IMG/VR virus record: IMGVR_UViG_2609459854_000004
Span: 1 to 16,896 of that record
DNA from: a virus
Taxonomy: Duplodnaviria > Heunggongvirae > Uroviricota > Caudoviricetes
Length of the DNA: 16,896 bases
Reading direction: 5' to 3' (one strand)
Shown here one piece after another: positions 1 through 15,992 of this stretch. The position numbers were made by a program, and so were the translations under genes. Positions within the stretch are counted from its first letter, which is position 1. Every line of letters starts with the position of its first letter. The notes under the pieces are model-generated. The model had not been told where the DNA came from, did no database searches, and saw only the letters and a list, made by a program, of their open reading frames with translations.

Positions 1-534
1 CTACGGGCGCAACGGGCATATGACGGTCTGAGTGTTGCTGGCCCGTCAGGTGCATACGAGTATTTTGCACGCAGCGCCAGCGGTCTGGTACGCGATGCGC
101 GGGCCATCAGCCCGTCTCCGGCCAACGTGACGGTTTCCATCCTGTCCACTGAGGGCGACGGCACAGCAACGGAGGTGTTGCTTAATACCGTTCGCGCCGT
201 TCTGAATGCAGAGGATACCCGCCCGGTGGCCGACCGCCTGACCGTACAGAGTGCCAGAATCGTGACATGGCGGCTGAATGCAAAACTGTACTTTTACCCC
301 GGCCCGGAATCCGAACCTATTCTGGCCGCGGCGGAATCGTCGTTCAGGAAGTGGCTGTCTGAGCAGGGGCTTATCGGTCAGGACGTGGCGTTGTCAGCCA
401 TTGCTGCCGCATTGCATGTGCACGGTGTGCAACGCGTGGAGATAATCGAACCCACACAAAATATGGCCATCAGCGACATACAGGCGGCGCGCTGTGAGTC
501 ATTCACCATCAGCGAAGGTGGGCGTAATGAGTAA
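1..534 (+). CDS. J: Baseplate assembly protein J (P2 gpJ-like), 5'-truncated by the window edge
   Basis: Frame 1 is open from base 1 to TAA at 532-534. Translation (…YDGLSVAGPSGAYEYFARSASGLVRDARAISPSP…DRLTV…YPGPESEP…GVQRVEI) matches what I recall of the P2 gpJ C-terminal half. Stop overlaps the next gene's start (ATGAGTAA). Confidence 0.85.
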   Translation, partial: LRAQRAYDGLSVAGPSGAYEYFARSASGLVRDARAISPSPANVTVSILSTEGDGTATEVLLNTVRAVLNAEDTRPVADRLTVQSARIVTWRLNAKLYFYPGPESEPILAAAESSFRKWLSEQGLIGQDVALSAIAAALHVHGVQRVEIIEPTQNMAISDIQAARCESFTISEGGRNE

Positions 535-1057
535 TTCACTGTTACCGCCATCAGCCAGCAATTTCATGCGTTGTGCCGAAGCTGTCGGAACGCGCATTAC
601 AGACATTCCGGTAGACCTCAACACGCTGTGGTCGCCGGACACCTGCCCGGTGCATCTGCTGCCTTATCTCGCCTGGGCATTTTCCGTTGACCGCTGGGAT
701 CGCAACTGGCAGGAAGAGACAAAGCGACAGGTGATTCGTGATGCATGGCTGATACACCGACACAAAGGGACCATCAGCGCACTGCGCCGGGCCATTGAGC
801 CGCTGGGATACCTCATTCGTGTGTCTGAGTGGTGGGAGTTCGGCGGAGAACCGGGAACATTTACCGTTGAAGTCGGCACGCTGGACAGTGGCGTGACGGA
901 GGAAATGTATCTGGAAATGGAGCGGTTGATTGCTGATGCCCGCCCGGTCAGCCGCCACATGACAGGGCTGAATATCATTCAGGAGATCCCGGGGGATATT
1001 TTCGCGGCGGCAGCAACTTACGACGGTGAAGTCATTACCATTTATCCGGACGATTAA
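527..1057 (+). CDS. I: Baseplate/tail protein I (P2 gpI-like)
   Basis: ATG at 527 overlaps J stop. Motifs [25 protein letters not shown]…VIRDAW…[17 protein letters not shown]…[15 protein letters not shown]…[10 protein letters not shown] resemble P2 gpI. The ORF-track start at 494 is an in-frame upstream extension I consider less likely. Confidence 0.85.
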
Positions 1058-1059
1058 GC

Positions 1060-2754
1060 ATGAGTACCACAACACGAAAATTTAAAACCATTATCACTGA
1101 TACTGGTGCCAAAAAATTAGCTCAGGCAGCCGCGCCAGATGGTAATCCTGTCCGCCTGACTCACATGGCCGTGGGCGACGGTGGCGGCACGTTGCCCACA
1201 CCAGACAGTAAGCAGACCCGTCTGGTGCATGAGGTGTGGCGACATACTGTTAATCGCGTCATCCTGGACGCAACACATCAGAACCGCATTATTGCGGAGC
1301 TGGTTATTCCTCCTGAAACGGGCGGATTCTGGATCCGGGAAATTGGTGTATTTGATGAGCACGGCGATTTAATCGCGGTGGGCAATACTGCCGAAAGTTA
1401 CAAACCAACCGTTGCCGAGGGGTCCGGACGTGCACAAACATTTCGCACCATTCTGACCGTATCCAGCACTGCCACCGTGGCGCTTACCGTGGATAACACC
1501 ATGGTGATGGCCACAGTGGATTACGTGAATGACAAACTGAAAGAACATGAACAGTCACGACGTCACCCGGACGCCTCGCTGACCGCAAAAGGCTTTGTTC
1601 AACTCAGTAGCGCCACTAACAGCACGTCTGAAGCACTGGCCGCAACGCCGAAAGCGGTCAAGACAGCCTATGACCTTGCTAACGGGAAATATACCGCACA
1701 GGACGCCACGACGGCACGAAAAGGAATAGTCCAGCTCAGTAGCGTCACTAACAGTGATTCTGAAACGCTTGCCGCGACTCCGAAAGCGGTGAAAGCCGCT
1801 AATGACAATGCAAACGGGCGTGTGCCCTCTGGACGTAAGGTTAATGGCAAATCACTAGCCAATGATGTCAATGTTACATCGCAGGATATTTTTAACGACC
1901 AGAGTATTGAGATTGGTGCAAATCAGAATCTGGATAATTACAAAACACCGGGGCTGTACCATCAGCCATTGAATGCCAATACAAGCGCAGCGCTGAAATA
2001 CCCGGAGAATTTTGCGGGTACACTGGTTGTGCTTAAAAATGCCGGGATAACACAGATTTACTATGTGTATGACACATCCAGAAGCTATACCCGCAGCCAG
2101 TACTCAACGGGTGACTGGACACCATGGACGCCACAAGATTCATTTCCGGTAGGTGCGGCGATACCGTGGCCTTCTGATTCAGTGCCTACAGGCTATACCG
2201 TTATGCAGGGGCAGACTTTTGATAAAACAGTCTACCCCCTGCTTGCAGTCGCTTATCCGTCTGGTGTGATCCCTGATATGCGTGGCTGGACGATTAAGGG
2301 CAAACCCGCCAGTGGTCGGGCCGTATTATCTCAGGAACAGGACGGCATTAAATCACACTCCCACAGTGCCAGCGCGTCCAGTACGGACTTGGGGACAAAA
2401 ACCACATCATCATTTGACTACGGCACCAAGACGTCCAGTTCATTTAACCATGGCACTAAAACCACGAATAGCGCCGGGGATCATTCACACAATATTCCTG
2501 TTGGCAACACTGGCGCTGGTAATGGTGTTTCGGCTGGTTATAACTCAGGGCTTGGCACTGGAAAAACAAGTAACGCAGGGGGGCACTCTCACACAGTAAA
2601 TATTGGCGCACACACTCATACGGTAGGAATTGGCGCACACACACACTCCGTTGCGATAGGTTCACACGGGCATACCATCACCGTTAACGCTACGGGTAAC
2701 GCAGAAAACACCGTAAAAAACATCGCATTTAACTATATTGTGAGGCTTGCATGA
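1060..2754 (+). CDS. H: Tail fibre protein (P2 gpH-like), with tandem fibre repeats and a His-rich HxH tip
   Basis: 564 aa ORF starting 2 nt after the I stop. The N-terminus resembles the conserved P2 H N-terminal domain. Two tandem repeats (…QLSS[A/V][14 protein letters not shown]…) and a C-terminal run of HxH motifs (DHSHN, GHSHT, AHTHT, AHTHS, SHGHT) are typical of phage distal fibre tips. Confidence 0.9.
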
Positions 2755-3653
2755 TTACGCTCATTCTTTCTGCACCAGTAACAGAAATGGCTGAAGCATT
2801 TAAGCAGGTATTTGCAAATGCAGATAGTGTGAATATTGTCGGAAAGCCATTTGAAACAATCAGAGAATTTGACTGCATGGTAAGTGCGGCAAATAGTTTC
2901 GGCTTGATGGATGGTGGCGTTGATGCCGCCATTACCGCATTCTTCGGTACTCAGTTACAGTCCCGCGTTCAGAATCATATTCTTCGTGAATATCTCGGCG
3001 AACAGCCTGTAGGTTCTGCATTTGTCATTGAAACGGGGCATAATCATCACCCCTGGCTGGTACATGCGCCAACAATGCGTGTTCCGTTGACAATTGACGG
3101 AACAGACGCTGTATATAACGCAACCTGGGCCGCTCTGCTTGCCATCTTTCAGCACAATAAAAACGCAACGACAGACATGAAAATAAAAACAGTGGTATTC
3201 CCTGCAATGGGGGCCGGATGTGGTCAGGTGCCGTTTGAAAGTGTTGCCCGACAGATGAAGCAGGCATGGGATAACTTTAATAAAAAAACAGAATCAATTA
3301 ACTGGGAATACGCACAATCTCGCCAGTCGGCAGTATTTGGCACATATGCATACTGTCCGGGTAATTCCGTTTGCCGTTATGCGGATACTAAATATATTGG
3401 ATGCGGCGATTATCGGACGTGTTGCTCTCGTTCCGGGCAACTCTGTATTAACCCTGAACATCAGGCTGATGATGTACTGATACAACATCAGGCTAATAAC
3501 CGTTTTCGCCCTGGTTCGCATATACACCGGATTAATCCAGAAAATCCCGTAGGTAATGTCACCTCTGGCGCACATAGCCACGGAAGTAGCATCGTTATTG
3601 GTACTCCTACCCATACGCTCAATAAACAATATTCTGTCTCTGATATTAAGTAG
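2751..3653 (+). CDS. Macro-domain-like protein with tail-fibre-tip-like (HxH) C-terminal region; function unknown
   Basis: ATG 2751 overlaps the H stop (ATGA) with GAGG 5 nt upstream. The N-terminal ~170 aa carry macro-domain-like motifs (…[18 protein letters not shown]… and …[14 protein letters not shown]…). The C-terminal ~100 aa are Cys-rich then HxH-containing (SHIHR, AHSHG, PTHT) like the H tip. Assignment is by motif only. Confidence 0.6.
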
Positions 3654-3661
3654 AGGTGAAC

Positions 3662-4240
3662 ATGGATTTCAGAATGAGTGAACAATCACGGACCATAAAA
3701 ATTTATAACCTGCTGGCCGGAACTAATGAATTTATTGGGGAAGGTGATGCATACATTCCACCTCATACAGGTCTGCCTGCAAACAGTACCGATATTGCAC
3801 CACCAGATATTCCGGCAGGCTTCGTGGCTGTTTTCAACAGTGATGAGGCATCGTGGCATCTCGTTGAAGACCATCGGGGTAAAACGGTTTATGACGTGGC
3901 ATCAGGGGACGCGTTATTTATTTCTGAACTCGGTCCGTTACCGGAAAATGTTACCTGGTTGTCGCCGGATGGAGAGTGTCAGAAGTGGAACGGCACATCC
4001 TGGGTGAAAGATGCAGAAGCAGAAAAACTGTTTCGGGTACGGGAGGCAGAAGAAACAAAAAACAGCCTGATGCAGGTAGCCAGTGAGCATATTGCGCCAC
4101 TTCAGGATGCCGTAGATTTGGATATTGCGACGGAGGAAGAGGCATCGTTACTGGCTGCATGGAAGACATATAGGGTATTGTTGAATCGTGTTGATACAAC
4201 AGTAGCAGCGGATGTTGAGTGGCCAGTCGCCCCGCAATAA
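3662..4240 (+). CDS. tfa: Tail fibre assembly protein (lambda Tfa-like chaperone)
   Basis: Translation from ATG 3662 ([54 protein letters not shown]…[33 protein letters not shown]…) is near-identical to lambda Tfa as I recall it. GAGG sits 5 nt upstream. The ORF track begins at an upstream in-frame GTG (3656). Confidence 0.9.
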
Positions 4241-4244
4241 AAAG

Positions 4245-4277
4245 AAAAAGCCATCGACAGAAATATCGATGGCTTTA
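4245..4277. terminator. Bidirectional rho-independent terminator-like hairpin between tfa and the acetyltransferase gene
   Basis: AAAAA-GCCATCGA-cagaaata-TCGATGGC-TTT: a perfect 8-bp stem flanked by an A-run on one side and T's on the other, sitting between two convergent genes. Confidence 0.55.
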
Positions 4278-4283
4278 TGTACT

Positions 4284-4856
4284 CTATTTATACAATACAA
4301 CACCACTCTTTTTAGTTATATATGTGCAGTTTGATGGTATATCTTTATTTATAAAAGACATTGCACCTATTTTTACATTATCCCCAATTTTACGTGACAA
4401 TCCAATGATGCAACAATTAGCTCCGATATCAACGTTACTACCAATTTTCACTCTTGAACCAGGCATGTCACCATCTATCTGTCCAATGGTAGTATTCTGT
4501 CGTAATACCAGATTTTCACCCGCATCAACAGCAAAATGAACAACAATTCCAGCATGATGGGGAATTGTTAACCCTTTTCCAATATTTGCTCCCAATCCTA
4601 TTTCACAACCAAATTTGTTAATTATTTTACTGTTTAACTTTTTGGCTGCTTTCTTATGTAATTTATTACCATTAATATACATTTCGTTAGCCAACCGCCA
4701 CCAGAAAAGGAAATTCCGGTTACGCTGCTTTTTCTCTCTTAAAAGCCTCCAGATATCCATACGTTTCCGCCGAATTACTTCATGTTTCCAGAAGTTTTTT
4801 AAATTAGTAGAGTTCCCAAATAAAACAAAGTGAATTGCCATTAAGTAAGACAGCAC
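4284..4856 (-). CDS. Hexapeptide-repeat acyl/acetyltransferase (serine acetyltransferase CysE / WcaB-like left-handed beta-helix); prophage cargo
   Basis: C-terminal half shows hexapeptide repeats and a CysE-like core (…GCEIGLGANIGKGLTIPHHAGIVVHFAVDAGENLVL…IGSNVDIGANCCIIG…IGDNVKIGAMSFINKDIPSN…). Preferred start is GTG at 4856 with AAGGAG 6 nt upstream; the ORF track extends to 4889. The region is strongly AT-rich compared with the flanking tail genes. Confidence 0.65.
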   Translation of the reverse strand: MLSYLMAIHFVLFGNSTNLKNFWKHEVIRRKRMDIWRLLREKKQRNRNFLFWWRLANEMYINGNKLHKKAAKKLNSKIINKFGCEIGLGANIGKGLTIPHHAGIVVHFAVDAGENLVLRQNTTIGQIDGDMPGSRVKIGSNVDIGANCCIIGLSRKIGDNVKIGAMSFINKDIPSNCTYITKKSGVVLYK

Positions 4857-4907
4857 GAAAATCTCCTTAATTATTATTTCAGACCACACATGTTATAAGG
4901 TTAAGAG

Positions 4908-4936
4908 ATTATAAAATCCTGTTATTTGTTATTCAA
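4908..4936 (-). promoter_or_regulatory. Candidate sigma70 promoter for the acetyltransferase gene (TTGAAT-17 bp-TATAAT on the - strand)
   Basis: Reverse complement of 4908-4913 is TATAAT; reverse complement of 4931-4936 is TTGAAT; 17-bp spacer; about 50 nt upstream of the proposed start. Sequence match only. Confidence 0.4.
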
Positions 4937-5012
4937 AAACAATTTTCTGAGAAGGACATACAACAGCAAGTCGCCAGTCACCTTCATCAGGAAATTGGCG
5001 ACATACGTTAAA

Positions 5013-5507
5013 TCAGAGCAGCCCCTTAACTGAGCTGGCCGCACTATTAAGGGATGATGTCACCTTATCTTTGAAGCCGGACAACATATCGCTGAACGAT
5101 GAGGATTGCAGGCGCTCCCGCAAATCCTCATCACAGCGTTCAAGAGTCAGTGAAAATTCTATCTTTTTCGCCTTACCGTAGCGATCAAACTCGGAACGGG
5201 TCGTATTCGTTCCGGTCAGGACATACATGCCGTAAATCTGCCCGACGCCATCAATCAGAGGCCAGGGTCGCCCTGTATACGCCTGCGTGGTCAGCAGCGA
5301 CAGCGACACTTCACCACCTGTAATTTCAGGATAAAGCACACCAGAAAGAACGATGCGATCATCACCTGCACCGATATACTGCCAGCTTGCTGAACGGTTA
5401 ACGCGTTCATTTTTCACATGCCGCCAGCTTTTGTTTTGCTGTAACTGCTGATGCGGCAACGTGCGCAGCTCAAAAACAAACATGCCGTAGATCATCATCA
5501 TGGCCAT
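5013..5507 (-). CDS. U: Tail protein U (P2 gpU-like)
   Basis: 164 aa; N-terminus M.MMIYGMFVFELRTLPHQQLQ…SWRH…GVLYPEITGG…PWPLIDGVGQIYGMYV…TRSEFDRYG resembles P2 gpU. Lies immediately downstream of T on the same strand. Confidence 0.85.
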   Translation of the reverse strand: MAMMMIYGMFVFELRTLPHQQLQQNKSWRHVKNERVNRSASWQYIGAGDDRIVLSGVLYPEITGGEVSLSLLTTQAYTGRPWPLIDGVGQIYGMYVLTGTNTTRSEFDRYGKAKKIEFSLTLERCDEDLRERLQSSSFSDMLSGFKDKVTSSLNSAASSVKGLL

Positions 5508-5513
5508 GACTCC

Positions 5514-8357
5514 TCAATCTTTATCGTAAAAACTGCCACGCCCGGCACGGGCGCGCCGTTCCATTTCTGCCCTGACCATTTCACCGACCAGTTTCGCCAG
5601 TTCGTGGGGATTCTGCGTAACAACGTTATGCAGATGAACATGAATTTCACCACCAAATCCGGAGGCAACAGGCTCCCGGTTACGGGAAGTTGCAGGCACT
5701 GATGCTACTGGTGATCGTATGGCCTCCGCCACCGGGCGGGTGCTGGCCGCAACAACAGGGACCAGCGCCGGAGGCAGCGGAGCCGGAACCACGGGGGTGA
5801 TATTAATTGCGGGGGCAGGCTTACTGACCTGCGCAATCTTCCGCTCCTGCCACTCCCCACGAACAGCAAGTGCGCGGGGCAGGTTCTTAAAGACAATATC
5901 GCCGGGGCCAATGCGTTTTTTCGTCTCATCAACCAGCTTACCTGTGTTATCAGCAATTTTGCTTAGTCTGCGCAGCGTACCGGTATTGCTGTCTGTGAGC
6001 GGTTTGTTGTCTTTGGGTTTATCACCTCCGGTGCCATTGCCATTTTCCACAGGCTTCGGCGGATTGATTTTCGCCAGGTCCCCCTGAAGCAAGGCAACCT
6101 TGTCCTGAAGAATGGCAGCACGCTGTGCGTCTTCGATTTTCTTGCGCGCCCTTTCCGCTTCATCCGGAAGCACACCGAGCTTTTCAAGTATCCACGCCAG
6201 CGTATCCAGCAACATTTTTGCAGGTGTCAGAACAAGTTGTAACGCACCGCCAAGAACGTTACCGAATATCTCGCCAGCACTGGTACATTTATCCAGCGTT
6301 TCCTTGCTGGACTCCATCGGTGACAGCAGCGATTTAAACCAGTTAAACACCTGGCTGATCCCACTCCCGATTGCGTCAAAAACAGGACCAAACCGTTCAA
6401 AGGTTTCGCGCAACGGGGTCAGCCTTTCCATAATCCCGCTGAACACCCCGGCAAAAAATGCCCTGATGGGATCCCAGTATTTCCAGATAAGAACGGCAGC
6501 TCCGGCAAGCGCAGCCACGATAAGACCAACCGGACTGAACAACGCCCCGATAGCGCCTCCCAGTAAAGAAACGGAACCCGTCACCATTCCCCATAGTGCT
6601 GGCAGAACCCTGACAGCATTCATTGATCCGGTCAGGAGGGAAAAACCAAGACGCAGTTTTGCCAGCGGGCCAGCAAGCACACCAATAGCCAGCGACAACG
6701 AGCCAACCGTTGCAGTCATTGCCAGCAGTGCACTGCCTGCAATCAGTAGCTGGCGCGTCAGTGCGGGATGGGCCTGCGCCAGCGCCGTCACCTTTGATAC
6801 CACACGCGTGAGCCACTGCGTGACAGAACGCAGCGGACCGTCAATCAGATCTGCAATGCGGATGCGCAACCCTTCCCATGCACTGCTGAGTGATTTCAGA
6901 TCGCCGTCAAGGTTGTTGGCCATAACCTTTGCCGTGCGTTCAGCCTCACCGCGCGCGCCTTCAAGTTCTTTTCTCAGTTTGGGTAAGGAGCCGTCACCTG
7001 CCGCATCAACGAGGGCCATAAATGATGTGAAAGCCTCTTCTCCGGCAATGTCCTCAAAGAACGATACCCGGTCAACTTCCCCGTATTTGCGGGTAGCTTT
7101 ATAAAGGTCAGCCAGCACATCCTCCATCGGGCGCATTTTGCCCCCGGCATCCGAGACAGACACGCCAAGCTCTTTCAGCGCCTCTGCTGCCGCCTTTGGC
7201 GGTGATGCCAGACGAGCCAGGCTGGCACGCATTGCCGTCCCGGCATCACTCCCTCTGATACCCATATTCGCCAGCACGCCCGCCATCGCTGCGGCCTGCT
7301 CCAGCGATATTCCCAGCTTACCCGCCACCGGACCTGCATATTTCATGGTTTCGCCCAGCGCGCGAAGGTCAGTGTTAGTACGGGTAAACGCTGCTGTAAG
7401 CGTGTCACCGACCCGGTCCATCTGGTCAGCGGAGAGGCCGAACTGCGTCAGGATATTTGAGCCAATATCCGCCGTCTCGCCAAGGTCCATACCGCCAGCC
7501 GTTGCCATGCTCAGCACGCCCGGAAGCGCAGCCTGAATGGCCTGCGGTGTGAAGCCAGCCATTGCAAGAAATGCCTGCCCACTGGCGGCATCGCCTGCGG
7601 TGAACTGCGTTTCAGAGCCAAGTTTTAACGCCTGCTCACGCAGCGCCTTAAACTGCGGGCTGTTTTTGTCGATTCGCGTCAGTGCCTGAACGCGGGACAT
7701 CTCTTTCCCGAACCCGATCGCAGGCTGCAAAAAACGCCCGACAGCATAGCCGCCCGCCGCTGCCGCACCAATTGCCAGCGCACCACCTGTTTTCAGTTTT
7801 CCCGCTGTTTCCTGCGCGCTCGAATACCGCTCACGCGCCCGCGTTACACGCGCAAGCGCCTGCCGTTCGCGTTCAAGCTGGTTGTTGTATTGTTCGGTGC
7901 GTCTGATGGCCTGCTGGATGGTGTTATCGCTGCCTGTCAGGGAAATGCCGTGGCGTTTCAGCTCTCCGCCAAGCTCCCGCATTTTCTGAATTTCCCGTGC
8001 GCGCGATTCATTCAGGCGTTCAAGCCGGGTGCTTAACTGCTGCATCAGCTTTTGTTGTTTTTCGCTGAGCACTGTACCCGTGCGTTGTAACTGATTAAGG
8101 GCGTTAAGCTGGCGTCGTGCTTTCAATATGCCAGCATCCGCTTTACTGACAGCGTCACGGGCGCGCTCAAATGATCGCGCCTGACGCTCGAGATTTTTGA
8201 TCGCCCCCTGCGTTCGCTGGATGGAGTCACCAAACTGCCCCATCAGGCGGCGGGCGTTTTCGGCAGGACGGGTCAGCCTGTCAACGGCGCTGAAAGCGAC
8301 CCGGATATCAAGAGTCTTCATTGTCTGCATTCCCGCTGCGAAGTGCCGCCCGCTCAC
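5514..8357 (-). CDS. T: Tail tape measure protein (P2 gpT-like)
   Basis: Approximately 940-aa ORF in the conserved position after the E/E' chaperone. Coiled-coil-rich N-terminus, central Ala/Gly-rich hydrophobic segments, Pro-rich C-terminus. Start uncertain: GTG at 8357 or ATG at 8330 or 8321; it overlaps the E' reading frame as in P2. Confidence 0.85.
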   Translation of the reverse strand: MSGRHFAAGMQTMKTLDIRVAFSAVDRLTRPAENARRLMGQFGDSIQRTQGAIKNLERQARSFERARDAVSKADAGILKARRQLNALNQLQRTGTVLSEKQQKLMQQLSTRLERLNESRAREIQKMRELGGELKRHGISLTGSDNTIQQAIRRTEQYNNQLERERQALARVTRARERYSSAQETAGKLKTGGALAIGAAAAGGYAVGRFLQPAIGFGKEMSRVQALTRIDKNSPQFKALREQALKLGSETQFTAGDAASGQAFLAMAGFTPQAIQAALPGVLSMATAGGMDLGETADIGSNILTQFGLSADQMDRVGDTLTAAFTRTNTDLRALGETMKYAGPVAGKLGISLEQAAAMAGVLANMGIRGSDAGTAMRASLARLASPPKAAAEALKELGVSVSDAGGKMRPMEDVLADLYKATRKYGEVDRVSFFEDIAGEEAFTSFMALVDAAGDGSLPKLRKELEGARGEAERTAKVMANNLDGDLKSLSSAWEGLRIRIADLIDGPLRSVTQWLTRVVSKVTALAQAHPALTRQLLIAGSALLAMTATVGSLSLAIGVLAGPLAKLRLGFSLLTGSMNAVRVLPALWGMVTGSVSLLGGAIGALFSPVGLIVAALAGAAVLIWKYWDPIRAFFAGVFSGIMERLTPLRETFERFGPVFDAIGSGISQVFNWFKSLLSPMESSKETLDKCTSAGEIFGNVLGGALQLVLTPAKMLLDTLAWILEKLGVLPDEAERARKKIEDAQRAAILQDKVALLQGDLAKINPPKPVENGNGTGGDKPKDNKPLTDSNTGTLRRLSKIADNTGKLVDETKKRIGPGDIVFKNLPRALAVRGEWQERKIAQVSKPAPAINITPVVPAPLPPALVPVVAASTRPVAEAIRSPVASVPATSRNREPVASGFGGEIHVHLHNVVTQNPHELAKLVGEMVRAEMERRARAGRGSFYDKD

Positions 8358-8837
8358 GCCAGCTAACCACTTCGCCGGGCGTCATCATGAAGATTTCGGC
8401 GGGCGACCAGTTAAAAATGGCGGCAATATCCGCCACAAAGTCTTCTATGTGCTCAAAGCACACAACCGTGATCAGGCTTCCGTCGCCTGTTCGTTCTTCC
8501 CGCCAGAGTCCGCACCGCTCAAAAAATTTACGGCAACCACACATAACTGAATAAAGTCACGGGATGCCATTTTTTTGATCGTCACTTCATCCAGTCGCGG
8601 TGATGTCACGCGTGACAGCAGCGTAAACATGGATTCCGCTTTCAAATTCAGCACATCAGACAGCGACAAATCTCGCAGAGATCCAGCCTGCTCAATAGCC
8701 CCGGTGATCTCCACATACGTGATTTTTTCGCCGCCTCGCTCAATTGGTTGGGTAAGTTTTACGCCACGCTCACTGGTTTCTTTCACAGTGTCAGTAACTA
8801 CCGTGTTTTCGGTATCGATGTTTTTCGTCTCTTTCAT
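8308..8837 (-). CDS. Tail assembly chaperone E+E' (-1 programmed frameshift fusion product)
   Basis: The -1 frame relative to E is open from just downstream of the slippery site to 8308 (…FFERCGLWREERTGDGSLITVV…). A shift at T_TTT_TTG joins the E N-terminus to this extension. The chaperone frameshift is conserved in P2 and other long-tailed phages. Confidence 0.6.
8472..8837 (-). CDS. E: Tail assembly chaperone E (P2 gpE-like), unshifted product
   Basis: 121-aa acidic ORF between the tube gene and T, carrying a canonical slippery heptamer in frame. Confidence 0.8.
   Translation of the reverse strand: MKETKNIDTENTVVTDTVKETSERGVKLTQPIERGGEKITYVEITGAIEQAGSLRDLSLSDVLNLKAESMFTLLSRVTSPRLDEVTIKKMASRDFIQLCVVAVNFLSGADSGGKNEQATEA
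8520..8526 (-). other. Programmed -1 ribosomal frameshift site, slippery heptamer T_TTT_TTG (E/E')
   Basis: On the - strand the E-frame codons read aaT|TTT|TTG, a canonical X_XXY_YYZ heptamer in the correct phase. The -1 frame downstream is open for about 70 codons. Confidence 0.65.
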
Positions 8838-8891
8838 CAGGGAACTCCTTTCAGTCAGGGGCGACGCACTGCGCCGCCTGCATATTACTTA

Positions 8892-9404
8892 TCAGCCAAG
8901 CCCGAGCGCGGAACGGATGCGATCGGGCACAATGTCCTTGCCGTCCTTCCGGTAAATGAAGTTCAGCAGGTCAATCTCCCACAACGGGCGATCGTTAACG
9001 CTCAGCTTGTAGTAGGTGTTTTTAATGGCGTAAGTGTGTGATGTGGCTTCGCCCTGTTTGGCTTCCCCCATATCAATTTCCGTCACGCGTCCGCGCATTT
9101 CGACTTCATACAGGTCGCTTTCTGCATCGGTGTAGTATTCACCCGCAAAACGCAGCAGCGTGCCGTCAATCGTGCCGCCATACTTAAGGAACAGCTCACG
9201 AACTGCGCCCCCCATGACAAAGCTCGCATCAAGCGCGGAGTCGTCCAGACCGAGATCAATACTTACCGCCCCCATCATGCCACCACCCCGGTAGCTGTCG
9301 GTTTTGCGCGTCAGCTTAGGCAGAGTGACGGACGTCACCTTACCCACTTCGTTTTCACCATCCACAAACAGCGTAAAAAAGCGAAGATGTTTTGGCACAG
9401 CCAT
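8892..9404 (-). CDS. FII: Tail tube protein (P2 gpFII-like)
   Basis: 170-aa ORF; its start overlaps the FI stop (TGATG). Size and position match P2 FII. Confidence 0.85.
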   Translation of the reverse strand: MAVPKHLRFFTLFVDGENEVGKVTSVTLPKLTRKTDSYRGGGMMGAVSIDLGLDDSALDASFVMGGAVRELFLKYGGTIDGTLLRFAGEYYTDAESDLYEVEMRGRVTEIDMGEAKQGEATSHTYAIKNTYYKLSVNDRPLWEIDLLNFIYRKDGKDIVPDRIRSALGLG

Positions 9405-10588
9405 CAGGCACCTCCCAGCACCGCAAATGCGGGTTCAAAGTATTCATCAGTAAACGTCTGGTAAAGCTCCATGTCTTCCAGTGGCGGAACGGGCGTATAT
9501 TTGTAGCGAATACGCACACGCCCCTGACGTAAATCCGTGGTGCTGTTATCCACCACGTCATACCAGCACTCCGCGCCAATCAGCTTCCCGGCAGTAACCA
9601 GTGAATCCAGTTTTGCCCTGATGGCACTGATAACATCCTTCACGTTCGCGGGTGTTAATGGACTGTCGATGGTTTCAAACTGCGCTTCCGCAATTGAATC
9701 AGCCAGCACCTGTGCGGTTCGGGTATACACCTCAAAGATGTAGGCGTTCGTTTCCGGTGTGCGGTTGCCCCAGAAGCGGAACCCGTTGCGACGAATAATG
9801 GTCGTGATTTCTTTGTTGTTGAGGCTGTTGGCATCGCTGTCTTCGGCCTGCAACGACCAGAACACATGCCTCGACATCCCCAGCACATTTTTAACCGGAA
9901 CGTTGGACAGTGATTTGTGCCATCCCTGCTCATGGTCAATGTACGCACGAAGGCCGCACGCATAGGCAGGCGCGGGGAACGTTTCGTTTTTGCCACTTTT
10001 CGGGTTGTAGGCGATGAAGTCCGGCCATAAGAGCATCACCTCACGTTCGTTGAATTTCTGGCGGTAGGTAATCGCCTCAGCCATCGTGTTACAGCCGTGA
10101 CATGAGGCATACACAAACGCGCGCAGTTTACCTGCAATCACGCACAGGGATTTTGTTACAGCCTCCGTGTCCAGCTCCGGCGCGGCCAGAATACGCGGAC
10201 GGTATCCGATGCTTTCATCCTGCTCTGCAACAAGCAGCGCATACATCCCCGTATAGCTGCCGTCATCCTCAGAACCACCGATAACCAGTTGATCCTGCGT
10301 CTTTCCGTCTTCTTCTTTGTGTTCAGCCACGCGAACGACGATCACCTTTGTGCTCACCTGGTCTGCGATGGCCTTAAGCGCACGATAAAGCGTCCCCGTT
10401 GTCCCGCATTTTCCCAGCACGTCATTGACGCGGGTCAGCAGTGTGGGCTTGTTCAGCGGGAACAGCTTCGCGTCCGCATCATCCGCCGTTGCCACGATAC
10501 CGATAACGCTGGAATCAACATCGTTAATCGCTGTTACCAGGTCGGTATTTTCCGTAACACGGGCACCATGAAAACGAGTTTCACTCAT
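9404..10588 (-). CDS. FI: Contractile tail sheath protein (P2 gpFI-like)
   Basis: 394-aa ORF; motifs …ATADDADAKLFPLNKP…GTLYRALKAIADQ…LRAFVYASCHGC…LLWPDF…GWHKSLSNV…IRRNGFRFWGNRT…YTRTAQVLADS…YKYTPVPPLEDMEL resemble P2 FI. Confidence 0.9.
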   Translation of the reverse strand: MSETRFHGARVTENTDLVTAINDVDSSVIGIVATADDADAKLFPLNKPTLLTRVNDVLGKCGTTGTLYRALKAIADQVSTKVIVVRVAEHKEEDGKTQDQLVIGGSEDDGSYTGMYALLVAEQDESIGYRPRILAAPELDTEAVTKSLCVIAGKLRAFVYASCHGCNTMAEAITYRQKFNEREVMLLWPDFIAYNPKSGKNETFPAPAYACGLRAYIDHEQGWHKSLSNVPVKNVLGMSRHVFWSLQAEDSDANSLNNKEITTIIRRNGFRFWGNRTPETNAYIFEVYTRTAQVLADSIAEAQFETIDSPLTPANVKDVISAIRAKLDSLVTAGKLIGAECWYDVVDNSTTDLRQGRVRIRYKYTPVPPLEDMELYQTFTDEYFEPAFAVLGGA

Positions 10589-10745
10589 AGCTTCAGCCCC
10601 TTGTATCCGTTAAATGATTCGGCAACAATCATCACCCACCACGCGCGTAATCTCACCCCTGCGCCGTTCTCCCGATTCGGCGACAACAAAAAGCAGTAAC
10701 CCCTTCCGCACGCACATGCGACCATGCCGCACAGGGAGGGAACAG
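10589..10745. promoter_or_regulatory. Divergent FI/D intergenic region; candidate late (Ogr-type) promoter for the FI operon, with repeated GATTCGGCRACAA motif
   Basis: 157-bp non-coding gap between head-to-head FI and D. Contains two direct copies of GATTCGGC[A/G]ACAA (about 10615-10628 and 10674-10689), a dyad ATGATT-n7-AATCAT (10614-10632) and a palindrome CCGATTCGG. Function inferred only from position. Confidence 0.3.
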
Positions 10746-11855
10746 ATGACTGATACCACCATGCAATTGCTCAGTCAGGGCACAGACCCCGTGAAAATGC
10801 CGGATTTTGATATTCTCGCGGAGGGTAAAACGCTGTCCGGCGTGGCAGAGCGCCTGATGAACCTGTCACTGACCGACAACCGGGGATTTGAAGCAGACCA
10901 GCTCACCATCACGCTGGATGATGCGGATGGTCAGTTGCAGCTACCGCCACGGGGCGCGCGCCTGACGGTTCTCATTGGCTGGAAAGGAGAACCGCTGACA
11001 GAAAAAGGCACTTACATCGTTGATGAAATCGCTCACGAGGGACCGCCGGACAGACTGACTGTTTCAGCCAGAAGCGCAGATTTTCGGGATGAATTTAACG
11101 TTAAACGTGAGGTGTCATGGCATGATGTGACCGTTGAGCGTGTGGTATCCGCCATCGCTCATCGGTACGGCCTGAAACCGCAAATCAGCGAAATGCTGAT
11201 GGATATCGAAATCGACCACGCCGACCAGACCGAAGAAAGCGACATGTCCTTCCTTACGCGCATGGCGGAAATGCTGGGCGCAATCACCACAGTAAAAAGC
11301 GGTAATCTGTTATTCATCATGCCAGGCGGTGGCGTGAACGCACAGGGCCAGCCGTTGCCATCGTTCGCCATCACTCGCAGCAGTGGCGATCGCCATCAGT
11401 TCCGCATTGCTGACCGCGAAGCGTATACGGGGGTACGCGCTTACTGGCTTGATCTTAATTACGGGAAAAAGAAAAAAGTCAGCGTGAAACGCCGCAAACC
11501 GAAAAAAGAGAAAAGCAGCAGCCGTGAAGGTGACTATATGGAAGGTTCGGAAGGCAACGTGTTTGTGTTACGCAAAACTTATCAGAACGAACAGGCAGCA
11601 AGACGCGCAGCGGCGGCAAAGTGGCAGCAGCTACAACGCAGAGCCGCATCATTCTCCATCACACTGGCACGTGGACGCGCAGAACTCTACCCCGAAATGC
11701 ATGGCACGGTGACAGGCTTCAAAAGTGACATCGACAATCAGGACTGGATTATTGCAAAAGCCGAGCACACCATTGATAACAGCGGCTTTACCACGCAGCT
11801 TGAGCTTGAGGCAAAAATCCCAGAGTGGATAGCAGAAACAGAGCGAGCAACATAG
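10746..11855 (+). CDS. D: Tail protein D (P2 gpD-like, late-control gene D family)
   Basis: ATG at 10746 with AGGGAGGG upstream. Motifs …DQLTITLDDADGQLQLPPRGARLTV.IGWKGEPL…SARSADFRDEFN…REVSWHD…SDMSFLTRMAEM…AITRSSGDRHQFRIADREAYTGV…, plus a Lys-rich linker, resemble P2 gpD. Confidence 0.85.
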   Translation: MTDTTMQLLSQGTDPVKMPDFDILAEGKTLSGVAERLMNLSLTDNRGFEADQLTITLDDADGQLQLPPRGARLTVLIGWKGEPLTEKGTYIVDEIAHEGPPDRLTVSARSADFRDEFNVKREVSWHDVTVERVVSAIAHRYGLKPQISEMLMDIEIDHADQTEESDMSFLTRMAEMLGAITTVKSGNLLFIMPGGGVNAQGQPLPSFAITRSSGDRHQFRIADREAYTGVRAYWLDLNYGKKKKVSVKRRKPKKEKSSSREGDYMEGSEGNVFVLRKTYQNEQAARRAAAAKWQQLQRRAASFSITLARGRAELYPEMHGTVTGFKSDIDNQDWIIAKAEHTIDNSGFTTQLELEAKIPEWIAETERAT

Positions 11856-11932
11856 ATACATTAGTTCATGCATAAGCTGGCCAGCTTACTACAAAAAGCT
11901 AGAATAAATTTGGCAATCCGCACAAATTAACA

Positions 11933-11951
11933 GGAGGCAGCTCAGGCCTCC
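11933..11951. terminator. Hairpin between convergent D and thsB (GGAGGC-agctcag-GCCTCC)
   Basis: 6-bp stem with 7-nt loop directly downstream of the thsB stop and about 80 nt downstream of the D stop. No strong T-tract, so terminator function is tentative. Confidence 0.3.
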
Positions 11952-11960
11952 GTGGTTGAA

Positions 11961-12428
11961 TTATTGTTTAATGGCGTTTTCTATCCATGTCGCCAAATTG
12001 TTCTTGATATCGCTATAAGCGTCGTTAAAGTTAGGTTCATATACGAGTGGTTTAATTACTCGATCGCCTCGCTTAAATGTAAATTGGTCGAAAGGATTCG
12101 GTCCTTTTGTCCCATAGCCGTTACGAGGGCATTTCAGTCGATGAATATAAATACCCACCACAGCCTTACCCTCTTTCCAGGCTCTTTCGATCTCATACTT
12201 GACCCATGGGCGATTAGCCGTTTGACTCCCGATCAGTACTACTAAGCAGGATTTGCCATTTAAGCTCTGATTAATCCAATTCTTCACGCCCTGCTCAGTT
12301 CGTTTAATTTGTTCCCAAGTATTTGGGCTAACCGGTTCATCCCCCTCCAGCACTCCCATGTTACGAATCTGCTGTACCCGCATAACATCGTTATCAAAGT
12401 GAAAGCTGTAAAATACCTTACGTTTCAT
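11961..12428 (-). CDS. thsB: Thoeris ThsB-like TIR-domain protein (DUF1863-type TIR)
   Basis: 155 aa; MKRKVFYSFHFDNDV…LVVLIGSQTANRPWVKYEIERAW…KGPNPFDQF matches the ThsB/TIR-like signature (KxVFxSFHxxD…LIGSQT…W…YEI). Strong AGGAGG 6 nt upstream of the ATG; 2-bp gap to the thsA stop, so likely co-translated. AT-rich island. Confidence 0.7.
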   Translation of the reverse strand: MKRKVFYSFHFDNDVMRVQQIRNMGVLEGDEPVSPNTWEQIKRTEQGVKNWINQSLNGKSCLVVLIGSQTANRPWVKYEIERAWKEGKAVVGIYIHRLKCPRNGYGTKGPNPFDQFTFKRGDRVIKPLVYEPNFNDAYSDIKNNLATWIENAIKQ

Positions 12429-12430
12429 AT

Positions 12431-13876
12431 CTAACCTCCTAGTTTCTTTAAAATTTCTAAAACTTTCATTTCGATATTTGCCCGATTAGCAGAGAGATCT
12501 GCAAGCTGAGCAACTTCCTTTTCCAACCAAGGGTACCGGACAAAATGTTTACTTGGATCCGTCAGCATCTCGTCAGCTAGTTCCTTGGCCATATAACCAG
12601 TGACGCCAAGTGGAAGCACGACAACCCCTGTTTCCTGAGCAATTTGAAACTCCCTTCGGACCCCATCAGCATTAACGATTCGACCATCATGGAGTTTATT
12701 CCCAAAAAGGAATATAGCGATTCCAGAAAGACCAATCATACGCTGCCGATATTCGTCCCATAGCTCGCTCAGGGCTTTATCGTTTGATGAGTGTTGAGGG
12801 AATGGCCGCATGATAAGTTGCTCTTCTGAGTACTTATCAGGCTTAGAATAAATGGCTTCAAGAGCTCCGTTGATGACCGCACTACCAATACCCCATCCAA
12901 ACCCATTGACAACTCGATAGCCATTCTTCACCAAAGATGACGAAAGTATGTGTACAAAGTTTAGTGCTTCCTGTTTGTCCCAAGCGCCATACTCTTCTGC
13001 ACTACCAGATATAAATATGGTCTTCTTGAGGAAGCGACTCTCAATCTCTTTCAATATAAGTGGAATATCATCGTACTCGTTTACTAATACAGCCTGAATG
13101 CCAAAACGGAGCAAATCGCGAATATGATGTTCTTGCCTACGCTGCCTATACATAGCGCCAGCTTCATCTTCATTTCCTTGCGGCAGAGAGGGTTCCTTAC
13201 GAAGAAAGCAGTAGTGTCTACGACGATGCTTCTCCGGAACATGCAATCGGCTCAATATGTAATCAAGATTAGGATCAGTAAAACTGAAGCCAATAAATAA
13301 GAATGTCTTAGAAATCAAATCTCCACTCAATGCTGTAACAAACCCCTCATGGGTCTTGTAGTACTGCTCATACTGAGCTTTATAAAGTATGGCGTCACCT
13401 GGCGAGCTAACATCACCATGCATTTTGTAAACAACAGCATCTCGTTTAGGACGAGTGGAAATAAGATCATCGGTTCTGCGTTTAATATCTGCGACACGGT
13501 AGTTTTCTTTGAGACTATCTTCAATCAAAGTGTCATAGTTGGTTGTCCAATAAGTTCTAATGGGTAGTCTAGCAAGGATTTTATGGGCTTCGGAAGGTTC
13601 CGCTTGCTCCGAGAATTCCTCTAGGATTTTTCTAGCTAAACCAGTTGAGCTGTTGTTCTTGTTGACATGGTATTGTGCAACCGAAATTAAGTCGTGCTCT
13701 AGCTCAACAGAAAGGCCTAATTCTTCAGCAATTTCACGCAGCAGTTCACTCCAATTAACGAAGCCGCTGGTTCTAGATAGGCCCGCACCAGCAAAAACGG
13801 CGGCAACCCCTTCTTCGAGATCCTTCACATAAGTCCTGATAAAAGCTTCAACTTCAGCCGAAAACTGAACACTCAT
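12431..13876 (-). CDS. thsA: Thoeris ThsA-like protein, N-terminal SIR2 (NADase) domain plus C-terminal SLOG/STALD sensor domain
   Basis: SIR2 motifs AAVFAGAGLSRTSGF…, …RTYWTTNYDTLIE… (catalytic Asn) and …AVVYKMHGDV… (catalytic His), then …TFLFIGFSFTDPNLDYIL…. C-terminal SLOG-like motifs …IFISGSAEEYGAW…NGFGWGIGSAVINGALE…IFLFGN…. Preferred start is ATG 13876 (MSVQF…); the ORF track gives TTG at 13897. Confidence 0.7.
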   Translation of the reverse strand: MSVQFSAEVEAFIRTYVKDLEEGVAAVFAGAGLSRTSGFVNWSELLREIAEELGLSVELEHDLISVAQYHVNKNNSSTGLARKILEEFSEQAEPSEAHKILARLPIRTYWTTNYDTLIEDSLKENYRVADIKRRTDDLISTRPKRDAVVYKMHGDVSSPGDAILYKAQYEQYYKTHEGFVTALSGDLISKTFLFIGFSFTDPNLDYILSRLHVPEKHRRRHYCFLRKEPSLPQGNEDEAGAMYRQRRQEHHIRDLLRFGIQAVLVNEYDDIPLILKEIESRFLKKTIFISGSAEEYGAWDKQEALNFVHILSSSLVKNGYRVVNGFGWGIGSAVINGALEAIYSKPDKYSEEQLIMRPFPQHSSNDKALSELWDEYRQRMIGLSGIAIFLFGNKLHDGRIVNADGVRREFQIAQETGVVVLPLGVTGYMAKELADEMLTDPSKHFVRYPWLEKEVAQLADLSANRANIEMKVLEILKKLGG

Positions 13877-14289
13877 ATTTTTAGACAATCCGGTCAAAAG
13901 ATAGACATAAACTTCTTACCACAAACTAACCTTTGTAGTTCTATACACCGCTTTTACGCTGTGCTTTAGTATCCAAATGGATTCATTACTACTGGGGTCA
14001 GTACCTATTGAGTAAGTAGGTAGAAAGCCATTACTAGCTCCAATACTCGCTAAGTATATGAGGCAATTAGGTGGTATTTTCAAGTTCACCGAGCCTGATA
14101 CAGGGCCATAGGAATAAATAGTCACATTTTCGTAGCTCTTTTCCACTATTGGTAGTTAAATAATTACTTTCACTTTATCGCTCAAAGCGTACTCTCAGGT
14201 TTATTGCTTTTTAGTTACATAAACCGTCAGTTAGAGTTTGTACCTGTACAACCTAGAATAACGGTAGCAACACGTTTGGGGAGGTCGCA

Positions 14290-14550
14290 ATGTTCCGTTG
14301 TCCACTTTGTGGTGCATCTGCCCGTATCCGCACCAGTCGTCCGGAAAATGATTCAAACACTGTACGACAAAAGTATTACCAGTGTAATAACTTAGAATGC
14401 GGCGTATGCTTCTCAACACTGGAAGCTTTTCATAAGTTCACATCAAAACACACCTCCTGCGTTCACTCTTCAGGGGATATTCCGTGGCATGAGCTGCCAG
14501 CTTCACACAAGGGAAACAATCAGATGAGTTTGCCTTTACCTCAGAATTAA
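14290..14550 (+). CDS. ogr: Ogr/Delta-family zinc-finger late transcription activator
   Basis: MFRCPLCGASARIRTSR…YYQCNNLECGVCF: a C-x2-C…C-x4-C zinc finger with Ogr-like spacing; GGGGAGG upstream. At 86 aa it is longer than P2 Ogr by a C-terminal extension. Confidence 0.8.
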   Translation: MFRCPLCGASARIRTSRPENDSNTVRQKYYQCNNLECGVCFSTLEAFHKFTSKHTSCVHSSGDIPWHELPASHKGNNQMSLPLPQN

Positions 14551-14638
14551 CAAGCAGAATTGCCGGAGTAGCAAAAAAGCGATAGATTACGCGCGGGTGC
14601 CTTTCGGCTGATGGTCGGAGGGAATACCCGAAGGCCAG

Positions 14639-14875
14639 ATGTGGAAAGGCCCCGGAAAAACATCTCTGTTTAACCGAGGCCCTAACCGCATTACCTTGAC
14701 AAGTGAAAGGTTAGCGCCTCTCCGGAAAAGGAGCAAGTGCTATGTCGCAAAAATCGCTTACGGCCATCACGTTCTGCGTGACGGCAATCCTCATCATCTG
14801 GATGCTGCACGGTTCGCTGTGCGAAATACGGATGAGCTTCTGGGGAGCGGAGTTTGCGGCGTTCTTACAGTGTAA
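14639..14875 (+). CDS. mok: mok-like overlapping reading frame (modulator of killing) of a hok/sok-type locus
   Basis: 78-aa ORF in a different frame that almost completely overlaps the hok-like ORF and ends 7 nt before its stop. This is the arrangement characteristic of mok/hok. No independent sequence support. Confidence 0.35.
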   Translation: MWKGPGKTSLFNRGPNRITLTSERLAPLRKRSKCYVAKIAYGHHVLRDGNPHHLDAARFAVRNTDELLGSGVCGVLTV

Positions 14876-14882
14876 GCAGTAA
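14742..14882 (+). CDS. hok: Hok/Gef-family type I toxin (small membrane peptide)
   Basis: 46-aa ORF MSQKSLTAITFCVTAILIIWMLHGSLCEIRMSFWGAEFAAFLQCKQ: single TM helix followed by the Hok/Gef signature SLCEIR…E.AAF. Not in the supplied ORF track because it is under 60 aa. Confidence 0.7.
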   Translation: MSQKSLTAITFCVTAILIIWMLHGSLCEIRMSFWGAEFAAFLQCKQ

Positions 14883-14891
14883 GGAAACCGC

Positions 14892-14913
14892 GACGGGGGA
14901 GCAATCCCCCGTC
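14892..14913 (+). other. Strong stem-loop in hok mRNA 3' region (GACGGGGGA-gcaa-TCCCCCGTC)
   Basis: Perfect 9-bp GC-rich stem with 4-nt loop immediately after the hok stop, consistent with the folded 3' elements of hok-family mRNAs. Confidence 0.5.
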
Positions 14914-14968
14914 AATCGGTTGCCAAGGTAAGGTCGATAAGGCACCCTATCTCATAGAGATGAATAAC

Positions 14969-15005
14969 AAACCCGCAGCGTAAAAACTGCGGGGTTTCTT
15001 TTTGG
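14969..15005 (+). terminator. Rho-independent terminator of the hok transcript
   Basis: CCCGCAG-cgtaaaaa-CTGCGGG stem followed by GTTTCTTTTT. Confidence 0.6.
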
Positions 15006-15071
15006 AACTCTCACTAGCTAGTGTACCGTTAGCGGCACATAATGCTCGCACAACAAACCAGTTAAAAGAGA

Positions 15072-15353
15072 TTACTCAGCATTCTCCTGCTTCCATTGCC
15101 GGATCATTTCATCGGTAACATCACTCTCATAACATACCACGTCATACCCTCCAGTACGGCTATATGCACTGCGTCCACCACATCTACTACCATTCCTTGC
15201 ATGATTATAAGGACACGCACAATTGCCTGGATAAGATTCAATGGATTCTTTAATTATTTCTTTCTTGATCTGAGCATCTGACTTTCCTTTTGCTGCATAC
15301 CCACTAAAAGATACCAAACAAAGGCAGATTGCCATTAATAAACCACATCGCAT
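15072..15353 (-). CDS. Small secreted Cys-containing protein of unknown function (predicted signal peptide)
   Basis: From ATG 15353: MRCGLLMAICLCLVSFSGYAAKG… has a typical Sec signal peptide (AxA-like YAA cleavage motif), then a 70-aa mature region with 4 Cys (…GNCACPYNHARNGSRCGG…VVCY…). The ORF-track N-terminal extension to 15467 precedes the signal peptide and is less plausible. AT-rich islet. Confidence 0.4.
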   Translation of the reverse strand: MRCGLLMAICLCLVSFSGYAAKGKSDAQIKKEIIKESIESYPGNCACPYNHARNGSRCGGRSAYSRTGGYDVVCYESDVTDEMIRQWKQENAE

Positions 15354-15812
15354 ACCGATACACTCTATTACTAACCAATCATAGCCCACATCATAAAATC
15401 GAGATGAGGAGTACAACACCTTTAACAAGAAGGTGCCATCACGATAATATGTCGTGCAATTCATCAAAAAAAAGATCTATATCAAAGAGATAGAGTTATT
15501 ATCAGTGCTGCAGACATCAGCATTCGAGGCAGCAGAAAAACAGTTAATCTAACGAATTTGTATTTTCTCAGGATGTTGTCAGATTAAAAAAGATAGATTA
15601 GCGCAGACACCTTTTGGCGGGTGGTAGGAGGAAAAATGAAGTTGAGTGGGAAGATCCCAGAAAAAATTTTGATTTAACCAAGGCCCTAGTTCAACATGCG
15701 AAATACAGATTAGTTGCAGGAGAGTTCTGCTTCACGCTTAGAGCTTCAACAGACGTGCACTATCATTGTTTCTGCATATCGCCACATCATCGCCACTTTA
15801 CCGCCATTGCAC

Positions 15813-15980: not shown

Positions 15981-15992
15981 TCGGGAAGAAAG

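Follow-up and report, generated by a model that had tools for sequence, protein, structure and literature searches.

What does a solitary AT-rich gene placed right behind the tail-fibre assembly gene in a prophage do for the phage, or for the bacterium that carries it? The question is raised by the IMG/VR record IMGVR_UViG_2609459854_000004, from a virus of the Caudoviricetes, whose positions 1 to 16,896 were analysed (hereafter the window, 16,896 nucleotides long). On its minus strand lies a gene whose product is labelled 'serine acetyltransferase' in RefSeq (WP_000954202.1; also as serine (O-)acetyltransferase), referred to here as the acetyltransferase gene. The explanation favoured from sequence comparison and from analogy with known phage systems, with a probability of about one half, is that this gene is a moron whose product would O-acetylate lipopolysaccharide (LPS) or another envelope glycan in the lysogen, masking the receptor of the accompanying fibre type. 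Envelope sugars appear the most likely target because the gene travels with a receptor-binding cassette, because it is found in the company of glycosyltransferases, several of them of LPS-associated families, and because cytoplasmic enzymes have access to sugar-nucleotide and lipid-linked intermediates.

The gene, its signals and its variable slot

In the list of open reading frames (ORFs) of the window, the gene appeared as an ORF of 201 amino acids (4284-4889, minus strand) read from the first GTG. The GTG at 4856 is the probable start, given the RefSeq call by the Prokaryotic Genome Annotation Pipeline (PGAP), the lengths of the homologues (188-196 amino acids) and an AAGGAG motif 6 nucleotides upstream, and the resulting protein of 190 amino acids ends at a TAG codon (4286-4284). 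The PHROG 2154 profile matched residues 24-201 of the 201-residue ORF over profile positions 3-181 of 185 (E = 2.5e-87), and 351 homologues were found. The gene is real and full length, neither a chance ORF nor a truncation, and its agreement in length with the homologues answered the objection of a truncated pseudogene that an earlier interpretation of the bare letters (the sequence-only reading) had named as one that would count against it. Homologues of 269-278 amino acids (P0037 and P0038) were considered as possible fusions and rejected as mis-called upstream extensions.

The guanine-plus-cytosine (GC) content was 34.6% in the coding sequence and 32.7% in the 156-nucleotide spacer upstream of it, versus 51% in the left flank and 54.7% in the right-hand tail block, values that agreed, like the ORF itself, with the claim of a lone cargo gene, read from the minus strand, in an AT-rich island that adjoins the tail-fibre chaperone gene (tfa). 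Two features of a moron, presence or absence among collinear relatives and atypical composition (34.6% versus 51-55% GC), were found. The gene and its flanks were present in 509 of the 5426 complete Escherichia coli genomes (~9%) with 95-100% identity, including strains of O157:H7, O39:NM and O78:H51; the O157:H7 copy was located in a decayed prophage at the same leuZ site, and further copies were carried by P1-like phage-plasmids. The gene was absent from P88, PhiR44_2, Chuche and other relatives that are collinear with the window from position 5007.

The junction proved to be a variable cargo slot, as had been proposed, since sister P88-like prophages differed in its contents. It was occupied by a GT9 (heptosyltransferase-family) glycosyltransferase in strain M11, by phrog_1962, annotated as 'glycosyltransferase', in phage Chuche, and by a DNA invertase with alternative fibre and tfa genes in P88, while locus L015 presented a 71%-identical allele of the acetyltransferase together with a methyltransferase and a tfa fragment, and locus L003 a 37%-identical paralogue without either catalytic residue. 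The comparison of window positions 4070-5519 with positions 5374-6787 of L015 revealed a mosaic, in which the promoter, leader and N-terminus were 84-96% identical, the middle of the coding sequence 62-74%, the 3′ end of the coding sequence with the terminator and the end of tfa 90-98%, and the 3′ end of the gpU gene 48-56%. This pattern suggests a cassette-style allele replacement, or a diversification of the catalytic/acceptor part between conserved ends.

Upstream of the start codon, both the promoter-like site and the Shine-Dalgarno sequence announced by the sequence-only reading were present (Table 1). The σ70-like site agreed with the consensus at 10 of 12 positions and was the best promoter-like site within 3600-5700; although this match alone was not significant, it was supported by conservation, as the ~125 nucleotides before the start were 86-96% identical in the 71%-identical allele. 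Similarly, the 43-nucleotide spacer between tfa and the acetyltransferase gene, with its terminator-like hairpin, was 100% identical in that allele. Another hairpin, just past the gpU stop codon, may act as a partial terminator of the late tail operon; as a whole, the spacer upstream of the acetyltransferase gene had an unremarkable RNA fold (z = -1.59). The exact consensus of the P2 Ogr-type late-promoter motif, TGT-N12-ACA, had no match in the vicinity of the acetyltransferase gene, but this comparison was uninformative because no match was found upstream of the sheath gene either, where one is expected. Rfam yielded nothing in the acetyltransferase gene or its leader. The only nearby Rfam match was to IS009 within the 3′ end of tfa (4005-4203, plus strand; 191 bits versus a gathering score of 117); it falls in the conserved, recombination-prone end common to many tfa genes and may be due to coding sequence instead of an RNA gene.

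Fold, catalytic residues and acceptor class

The AlphaFold model and the family alignment were built on 58 homologous sequences. The model had a mean predicted local distance difference test (pLDDT) score of 95.7 and presented five N-terminal helices followed, from residue 110, by a β-helix with regularly spaced short strands. All 50 matches listed by Foldseek against the PDB were serine acetyltransferases (probability 1.00; query TM-score, TMq, 0.61-0.76; 18-32% identity), and a fold search of the viral structure library BFVD was of no help, its matches being poor (TMq ≤ 0.35). The model and Foldseek placed the protein among the left-handed parallel β-helix (hexapeptide) proteins, the Pfam Hexapep profile scoring below its threshold (23.6 bits versus a cut-off of 27). 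In the family alignment, H100 was His in 57 of the 58 sequences and position 85 was D or E in all of them; they were aligned, respectively, with the catalytic His of the 'DH' motif and the catalytic Asp of the 'G-x-D-I-H-P' motif of CysE. Among the NCBIfam models, EpsC was the best match (75.6 versus a cut-off of 150; E = 3.6e-21), and the cysE models (TIGR01172 and PRK11132; 61.6 versus 210.65 and 36.6 versus 397) and WcaB models (54.2 versus 196 and 53.3 versus 194.65; E about 1e-14) also scored below their curated cut-offs. The CysE/WcaB-like hexapeptide core recognized by the sequence-only reading was borne out by the agreement of the NCBIfam ranking, the CysE alignment and Foldseek; the homology search placed EpsC, cysE and WcaB first, but all of them far below the curated cut-offs. 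By its predicted fold and aligned dyad, the protein would be a CysE-type, acetyl-CoA-dependent O-acetyltransferase, one that falls outside the CysE, WcaB and EpsC families.

These relationships bring in another explanation, that of a genuine serine O-acetyltransferase, which would supply O-acetylserine in the lysogen or during infection and would boost cysteine synthesis or induce the CysB regulon without feedback from cysteine. In its favour count the RefSeq label and the fact that every top structural match is a CysE (TMq about 0.7), the resemblance extending to the two-domain architecture, with the His/acidic dyad and part of the helical domain. The residues that bind serine and cysteine in E. 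coli CysE, namely D157, R192 and H193, are nevertheless not kept. The Asp of the CysE 'LDHATG' motif is replaced by Pro ('DH' to 'PH') at a position that is variable across the family, and the 'GDRHP' loop aligns to 'PGSRV', where the loop length varies and positions 131-135, with an entropy of about 3-3.7 bits, form the most variable stretch of the β-helix domain. Moreover, the protein is short and without the long N-terminal domain of CysE, Pfam SATase_N giving no match to its 190 residues, and it ends ~10 residues past the last coil, without the C-terminal tail that in CysE binds CysK and mediates feedback; the PDB sequence matches covered only the C-terminal two thirds of the CysE chains. 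Its neighbours are fibre and glycosyltransferase genes instead of genes of sulphur metabolism. Since it misses the curated thresholds and is devoid of the serine-binding residues of CysE, the protein is improbable as a true serine acetyltransferase, and the database name is a fold-level label.

The best-scoring named models, WcaB and EpsC, represent small CysE-like enzymes assigned to exopolysaccharide pathways, with a chemistry such as the one proposed here; the phage protein, however, is no equivalog by its scores, and its gene stands alone in a prophage tail region and not in a polysaccharide cluster. The best functional analogue is NeuO, a hexapeptide O-acetyltransferase encoded by prophage CUS-3 of E. 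coli K1, where it modifies the K1 capsule by acetylation and confers protection from K1 phages (PMC3046976, PMC9659370). As in the present case, a single prophage-borne gene specifies a left-handed β-helix enzyme dependent on acetyl-CoA. NeuO was not among the PDB sequence matches of the acetyltransferase at E ≤ 1e-3 and therefore represents a different hexapeptide subfamily. It is also phase-variable via tandem repeats, whereas no such repeats were found in 4200-5100, and its acceptor is known, whereas the acceptor proposed here is a candidate only.

Linkage to tail-fibre genes and the proposed role

Other genomes and IMG/VR yielded more distant members of the family (35-67% identity), and clustering at 80% identity left 20 evaluable clusters. 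In 10 of the 20, a convergent tfa gene was located within 150 nucleotides of the acetyltransferase stop codon, and this linkage was seen in P88/P2-like prophages, P1-like phage-plasmids, Citrobacter phiNP and Hafnia yong2. Within other fibre regions, the gene was directly followed by GT25 in Xenorhabdus and by phrog_1962 in locus L099, and it was flanked by an HtrL/YibB protein in locus L093; the gene after which the latter family is named, yibB, belongs to the LPS-core locus of E. coli. The acetyltransferase gene itself is very common and already bears an annotation. It was listed among the E. coli signature sequences in a Neptune k-mer comparison (PMC5737611) and, in Citrobacter phiNP, mentioned as 'fitness' cargo (PMC6456863), and prophage-borne surface-modifying acetyltransferases are a known kind; the recurrent coupling of the family to tail-fibre chaperone genes across phage types was not found in the searched literature.

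In the mechanism that we propose, the moron would be a promoter-gene-terminator unit of foreign base composition, inserted in the variable junction after tfa of a P88-like prophage. Its product would be a cytoplasmic, probably trimeric, acetyl-CoA-dependent O-acetyltransferase, with a helical N-domain, a left-handed β-helix, a His/acidic dyad and an acceptor pocket unlike that of serine acetyltransferase. As acceptor we infer an envelope-glycan sugar, modified during its assembly at the inner membrane face, the LPS core or the O-unit being the leading candidate. Expressed in the lysogen, and possibly late in infection, the enzyme would modify the receptor of the fibre type that travels with its gene, and the outcome would be receptor masking, self-exclusion and/or antigenic conversion. 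Receptor-blocking genes located beside receptor-binding genes have precedents in llp of T5, next to pb5, and in cor of phi80 and N15. The genetic logic proposed here is the same, a self-exclusion function travelling with a receptor-recognition module; however, llp and cor specify small FhuA-binding lipoproteins, whereas the present product would be a glycan-modifying enzyme, whose coupling is read from synteny only.

Several observations weigh against this explanation. Half of the clusters were not placed beside tfa, some members being found at prophage ends, beside integrases or on the bfp plasmid of enteropathogenic E. coli (EPEC), and the fibre-gene synteny could arise simply because the 3′ end of tfa recombines so readily and carries the gene along. 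The promoter-like sites in the scan numbered 5, versus 4.0 ± 2.1 in shuffled sequences, so that the match is indistinguishable from chance in AT-rich DNA and constitutes a lead and no proof. A near-identical gene occurred in the different O types cited above (O157:H7, O39:NM and O78:H51), which renders an O-antigen-specific acceptor unlikely. Moreover, the catalytic residues were lost in the paralogue of 181 amino acids that occupies the same slot, and its persistence there implies that catalysis may not be essential to the selected trait. Finally, the literature search found no functional study of the gene or its family, and PHROG 2154 is annotated as 'unknown function'.

The paralogue (37% identity; phrog_2154, E = 1.8e-78) was located after tfa both in a P88-like prophage (L003, 4576-5121) and in a P1-like plasmid (L025, 6493-7038). 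With the catalytic His replaced by Tyr and the acidic partner by Thr, it is either inactive or of different chemistry.

If linkage alone explained the distribution, the gene would be a functionless passenger, AT-rich and probably silenced, kept solely by its association with the tail-fibre recombination cassette. Its retention in the degraded O157:H7 prophage, with its damaged phage genes and insertion sequences (ISs), is compatible with such a passenger, but it equally points to host-side selection in a decaying element. In addition, the frame was intact and 98-100% conserved in ~500 complete genomes, and the catalytic residues were near-invariant in the family down to ~40% identity, which makes a passenger unlikely. 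The degraded element, in strain PV15-279 (L023, 5696-19616), presented a holin gene with an internal stop, a truncated tape measure gene, and IS1203 and an IS30 remnant adjacent to it; its fibre, macro-domain, tfa and acetyltransferase genes were still intact.

The same slot could instead harbour a single-gene intracellular anti-phage or anti-defence factor, which would acetylate a phage or host protein, a nucleotide or a signalling molecule rather than an envelope glycan. P2-like phages have hot spots for defence genes (PMC9122126), a Thoeris system is found in another slot of this very prophage, and the gene resembles a lysogen-type moron with its own signals. The single-gene defence role suggested by the sequence-only reading nevertheless found no support, as none of 5027 PADLOC models (PADLOC-DB 2.0, E ≤ 0.01) matched, the six alternative contents of the slot were glycan-modifying or host-range genes with no defence system among them, and the literature search found no paper tying the family to defence. 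The probability left to this alternative is small.

A further low-probability alternative is a role in the lytic cycle, in which read-through from the late tail operon would express the enzyme, and its target would be part of the virion, the fibre or its chaperone, or else the LPS of the dying cell, whose acetylation would keep the progeny from being trapped on debris. The gene is co-oriented with gpU and begins 156 nucleotides downstream of it, with only weak terminator-like hairpins in between, and the tight tfa linkage in many phages would fit such a role. However, P88, PhiR44_2 and Chuche do not carry the gene and make functional virions, so that it is not needed for assembly, and it has a promoter-like site of its own and a foreign composition. 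The arrangement in the P1-like plasmid would also be at odds with constant read-through, which would be impossible there if the segment between the opposed fibre/tfa sets inverts. In this plasmid (pEND_Eco 19025-2; L024, 3771-11138), a tfa-acetyltransferase pair with 92% DNA identity was found between two opposed fibre/tfa sets and beside a recombinase gene. The fibre region of P1 is an invertible segment, and the L024 region looks like it; if so, the orientation of the acetyltransferase gene relative to outside promoters would flip.

The sequence-only reading had also paired the acetyltransferase with the macro-domain protein encoded between fibre gene H and tfa. This protein of 300 amino acids matched Pfam Macro (E = 1e-18), preserved an N-x6-GGVD motif and had a His-rich C-terminus resembling the end of the fibre protein, and may represent a virion-associated ADP-ribose-binding or hydrolase domain; its relatives were found in Chuche, Gifsy-1, SEN4/5 and a P1-like plasmid, and among the 'tail proteins' of jumbo phages. 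A functional pair, for example the writer of an acetyl mark and its virion-borne eraser, would account for the recurrence of the order fibre, macro, tfa and acetyltransferase in H3, in O157:H7 and, with the 181-residue paralogue, in the P1-like plasmid pMB17626_2; deacetylation of O-acetyl-ADP-ribose is known for some macro domains, but the NCBIfam matches here were well below cut-off. On the other hand, Chuche, Gifsy-1 and SEN4/5 possess macro homologues without an acetyltransferase homologue anywhere, L015, L024 and L003 possess the acetyltransferase without the macro protein, Chuche couples macro with a glycosyltransferase instead, and both genes may merely ride on the fibre cassette. Since each occurs without the other, neither requires its partner and any association is optional at most; a functional pair seems very improbable. 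A megablast count of co-occurrence (25 genomes with macro, tfa and acetyltransferase) was rejected as a measure of pairing, in favour of a protein-level and annotation comparison, because megablast missed the diverged macro gene of the O157 prophage.

Equally far-fetched is a fuller version, a receptor-marking contest in which the lysogen would acetylate its LPS receptor, by means of an acceptor loop that diversifies with fibre specificity, and a virion-borne macro esterase would erase the marks, the cassettes comprising fibre, eraser, chaperone and writer. More likely is its weaker half, in which P2-, P1- and other phage types share no more than a genetic coupling between the receptor-binding cassette and an enzyme that masks the receptor.

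If the envelope-glycan explanation is true, about one in 11 sequenced E. coli, O157:H7 among them, would carry a phage-supplied editor of envelope glycans, with a bearing on phage host range, escape from phage therapy, serology and possibly innate immune recognition. Moreover, the coupling to tfa suggests a rule by which receptor-modifying genes could be predicted in other prophages, that the self-exclusion enzyme travels with the receptor-binding module. Should the explanation fail, the practical gain would be smaller, namely that 'serine acetyltransferase', the name widely given to the family in RefSeq, would be wrong.

The prophage around the acetyltransferase gene

The window was 100% identical to E. 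coli strain H3 (NZ_CP010167.1) over 4200-5100 (901 bases) and 2751-4900 (2150 bases), and 99.9% identical over 3656-5507. It corresponds to the tail half of a P2-related, P88-like (Xuanwuvirus) prophage located beside the glyW-cysT-leuZ tRNA genes and pgsA. The plus strand carries, in order, baseplate J and I, fibre H, the macro-domain gene and tfa; they are followed on the minus strand by the acetyltransferase, gpU, tape measure, E/E′, tube and sheath genes, and then by gpD on the plus strand. Beyond gpD lie the Thoeris genes thsB and thsA on the minus strand, and then ogr, hok and the tRNAs (Table 1).

Table 1. Coordinates of the acetyltransferase gene, its putative expression signals and neighbouring features in the window
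Feature	Position	Strand	Remarks
Acetyltransferase coding sequence	4284..4856	-	190 amino acids, predicted CysE-like left-handed β-helix; RefSeq WP_000954202.1, phrog_2154, homologue lengths and model; the ORF listing reaches the GTG at 4889
Shine-Dalgarno sequence AAGGAG	4863..4868	-	6 nucleotides before the GTG start; conserved in O157 and in the 71%-identical allele
σ70 promoter-like site, TTGAAT-17 nucleotides-TATAAT	4908..4936	-	Consensus match; sequence kept in the diverged allele
Terminator-like hairpin, bidirectional	4247..4276	both	13-bp stem with T-runs on both sides; common to the convergent tfa and acetyltransferase genes
Hairpin GUCGCCA...UGGCGAC, then U-rich stretch	4970..5002	-	Just past the gpU stop; within the fold of overall z-score -1.59
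Tail-fibre assembly (chaperone) gene tfa	3656..4240	+	Recurrent convergent neighbour of this acetyltransferase family
gpU tail protein	5013..5507	-	Last gene of the inverted FI-FII-E-E′-T-U block; right border of the slot
Fibre H	1060..2754	+	
Macro-domain protein	2751..3653	+	Between fibre H and tfa
Sheath	9404..10588	-	Far end of the inverted block
Thoeris ThsB	11961..12428	-	TIR
Thoeris ThsA	12431..13897	-	SIR2 + SLOG/STALD

The block from FI to U (5013-10588) is placed on the strand opposite to H-G (1-4240) and D (10614-11855), unlike in P2. P88 and its Xuanwuvirus relatives matched the window with 94-98% identity from position 5007 on and diverged to the left of it, and the FI-U inversion is the standard P88/Xuanwuvirus arrangement. 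No long inverted repeats were found flanking this block, only short imperfect pairs at chance level. Because the tail block is inverted relative to P2, the slot extends from G to U and not from G to the sheath gene, which the sequence-only reading had taken for the right-hand neighbour; the neighbour is gpU, and the sheath gene lies at the far end of the block. The equivalence with the Z/fun site of P2, claimed by the same reading, held on the G side, directly after the tail-fibre assembly gene, whereas the other border in P88-like phages is gpU instead of FI. In P2-like phages, the Z region is documented as a site of foreign genes, and the product of Z/fun is an exclusion protein (PMC3091744, Table 4); the likeness to the present locus consists of a foreign cargo gene, predicted here to be separately expressed, that is located straight after the tail-fibre assembly gene in a region variable among relatives (PMC3091744).

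Between gpD and ogr, a complete type I Thoeris system was found (11961-13897, minus strand). The same position was occupied by a YecA-family gene in the O157:H7 sister prophage and by nothing in P88; since its contents differ among H3, O157:H7 and P88, the D-ogr interval is a further variable cargo slot of P88-like prophages, carrying defence in this case. The gpD frame is open from 10614 on the plus strand, with a likely start near 10746 and its end at 11855; RefSeq annotates only 11055-11855 and a small pseudogene fragment, a short call more likely due to the annotation than to a truncation of the gene. Lastly, a small AT-rich ORF (15072-15353, minus strand; GC ~0.35-0.41) whose product contains several cysteines and begins like a lipoprotein or signal sequence adjoins the attachment-site tRNA-Leu. 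Compared by size and position alone, it has a same-size counterpart in the O157:H7 prophage and a similar-sized one in P88.

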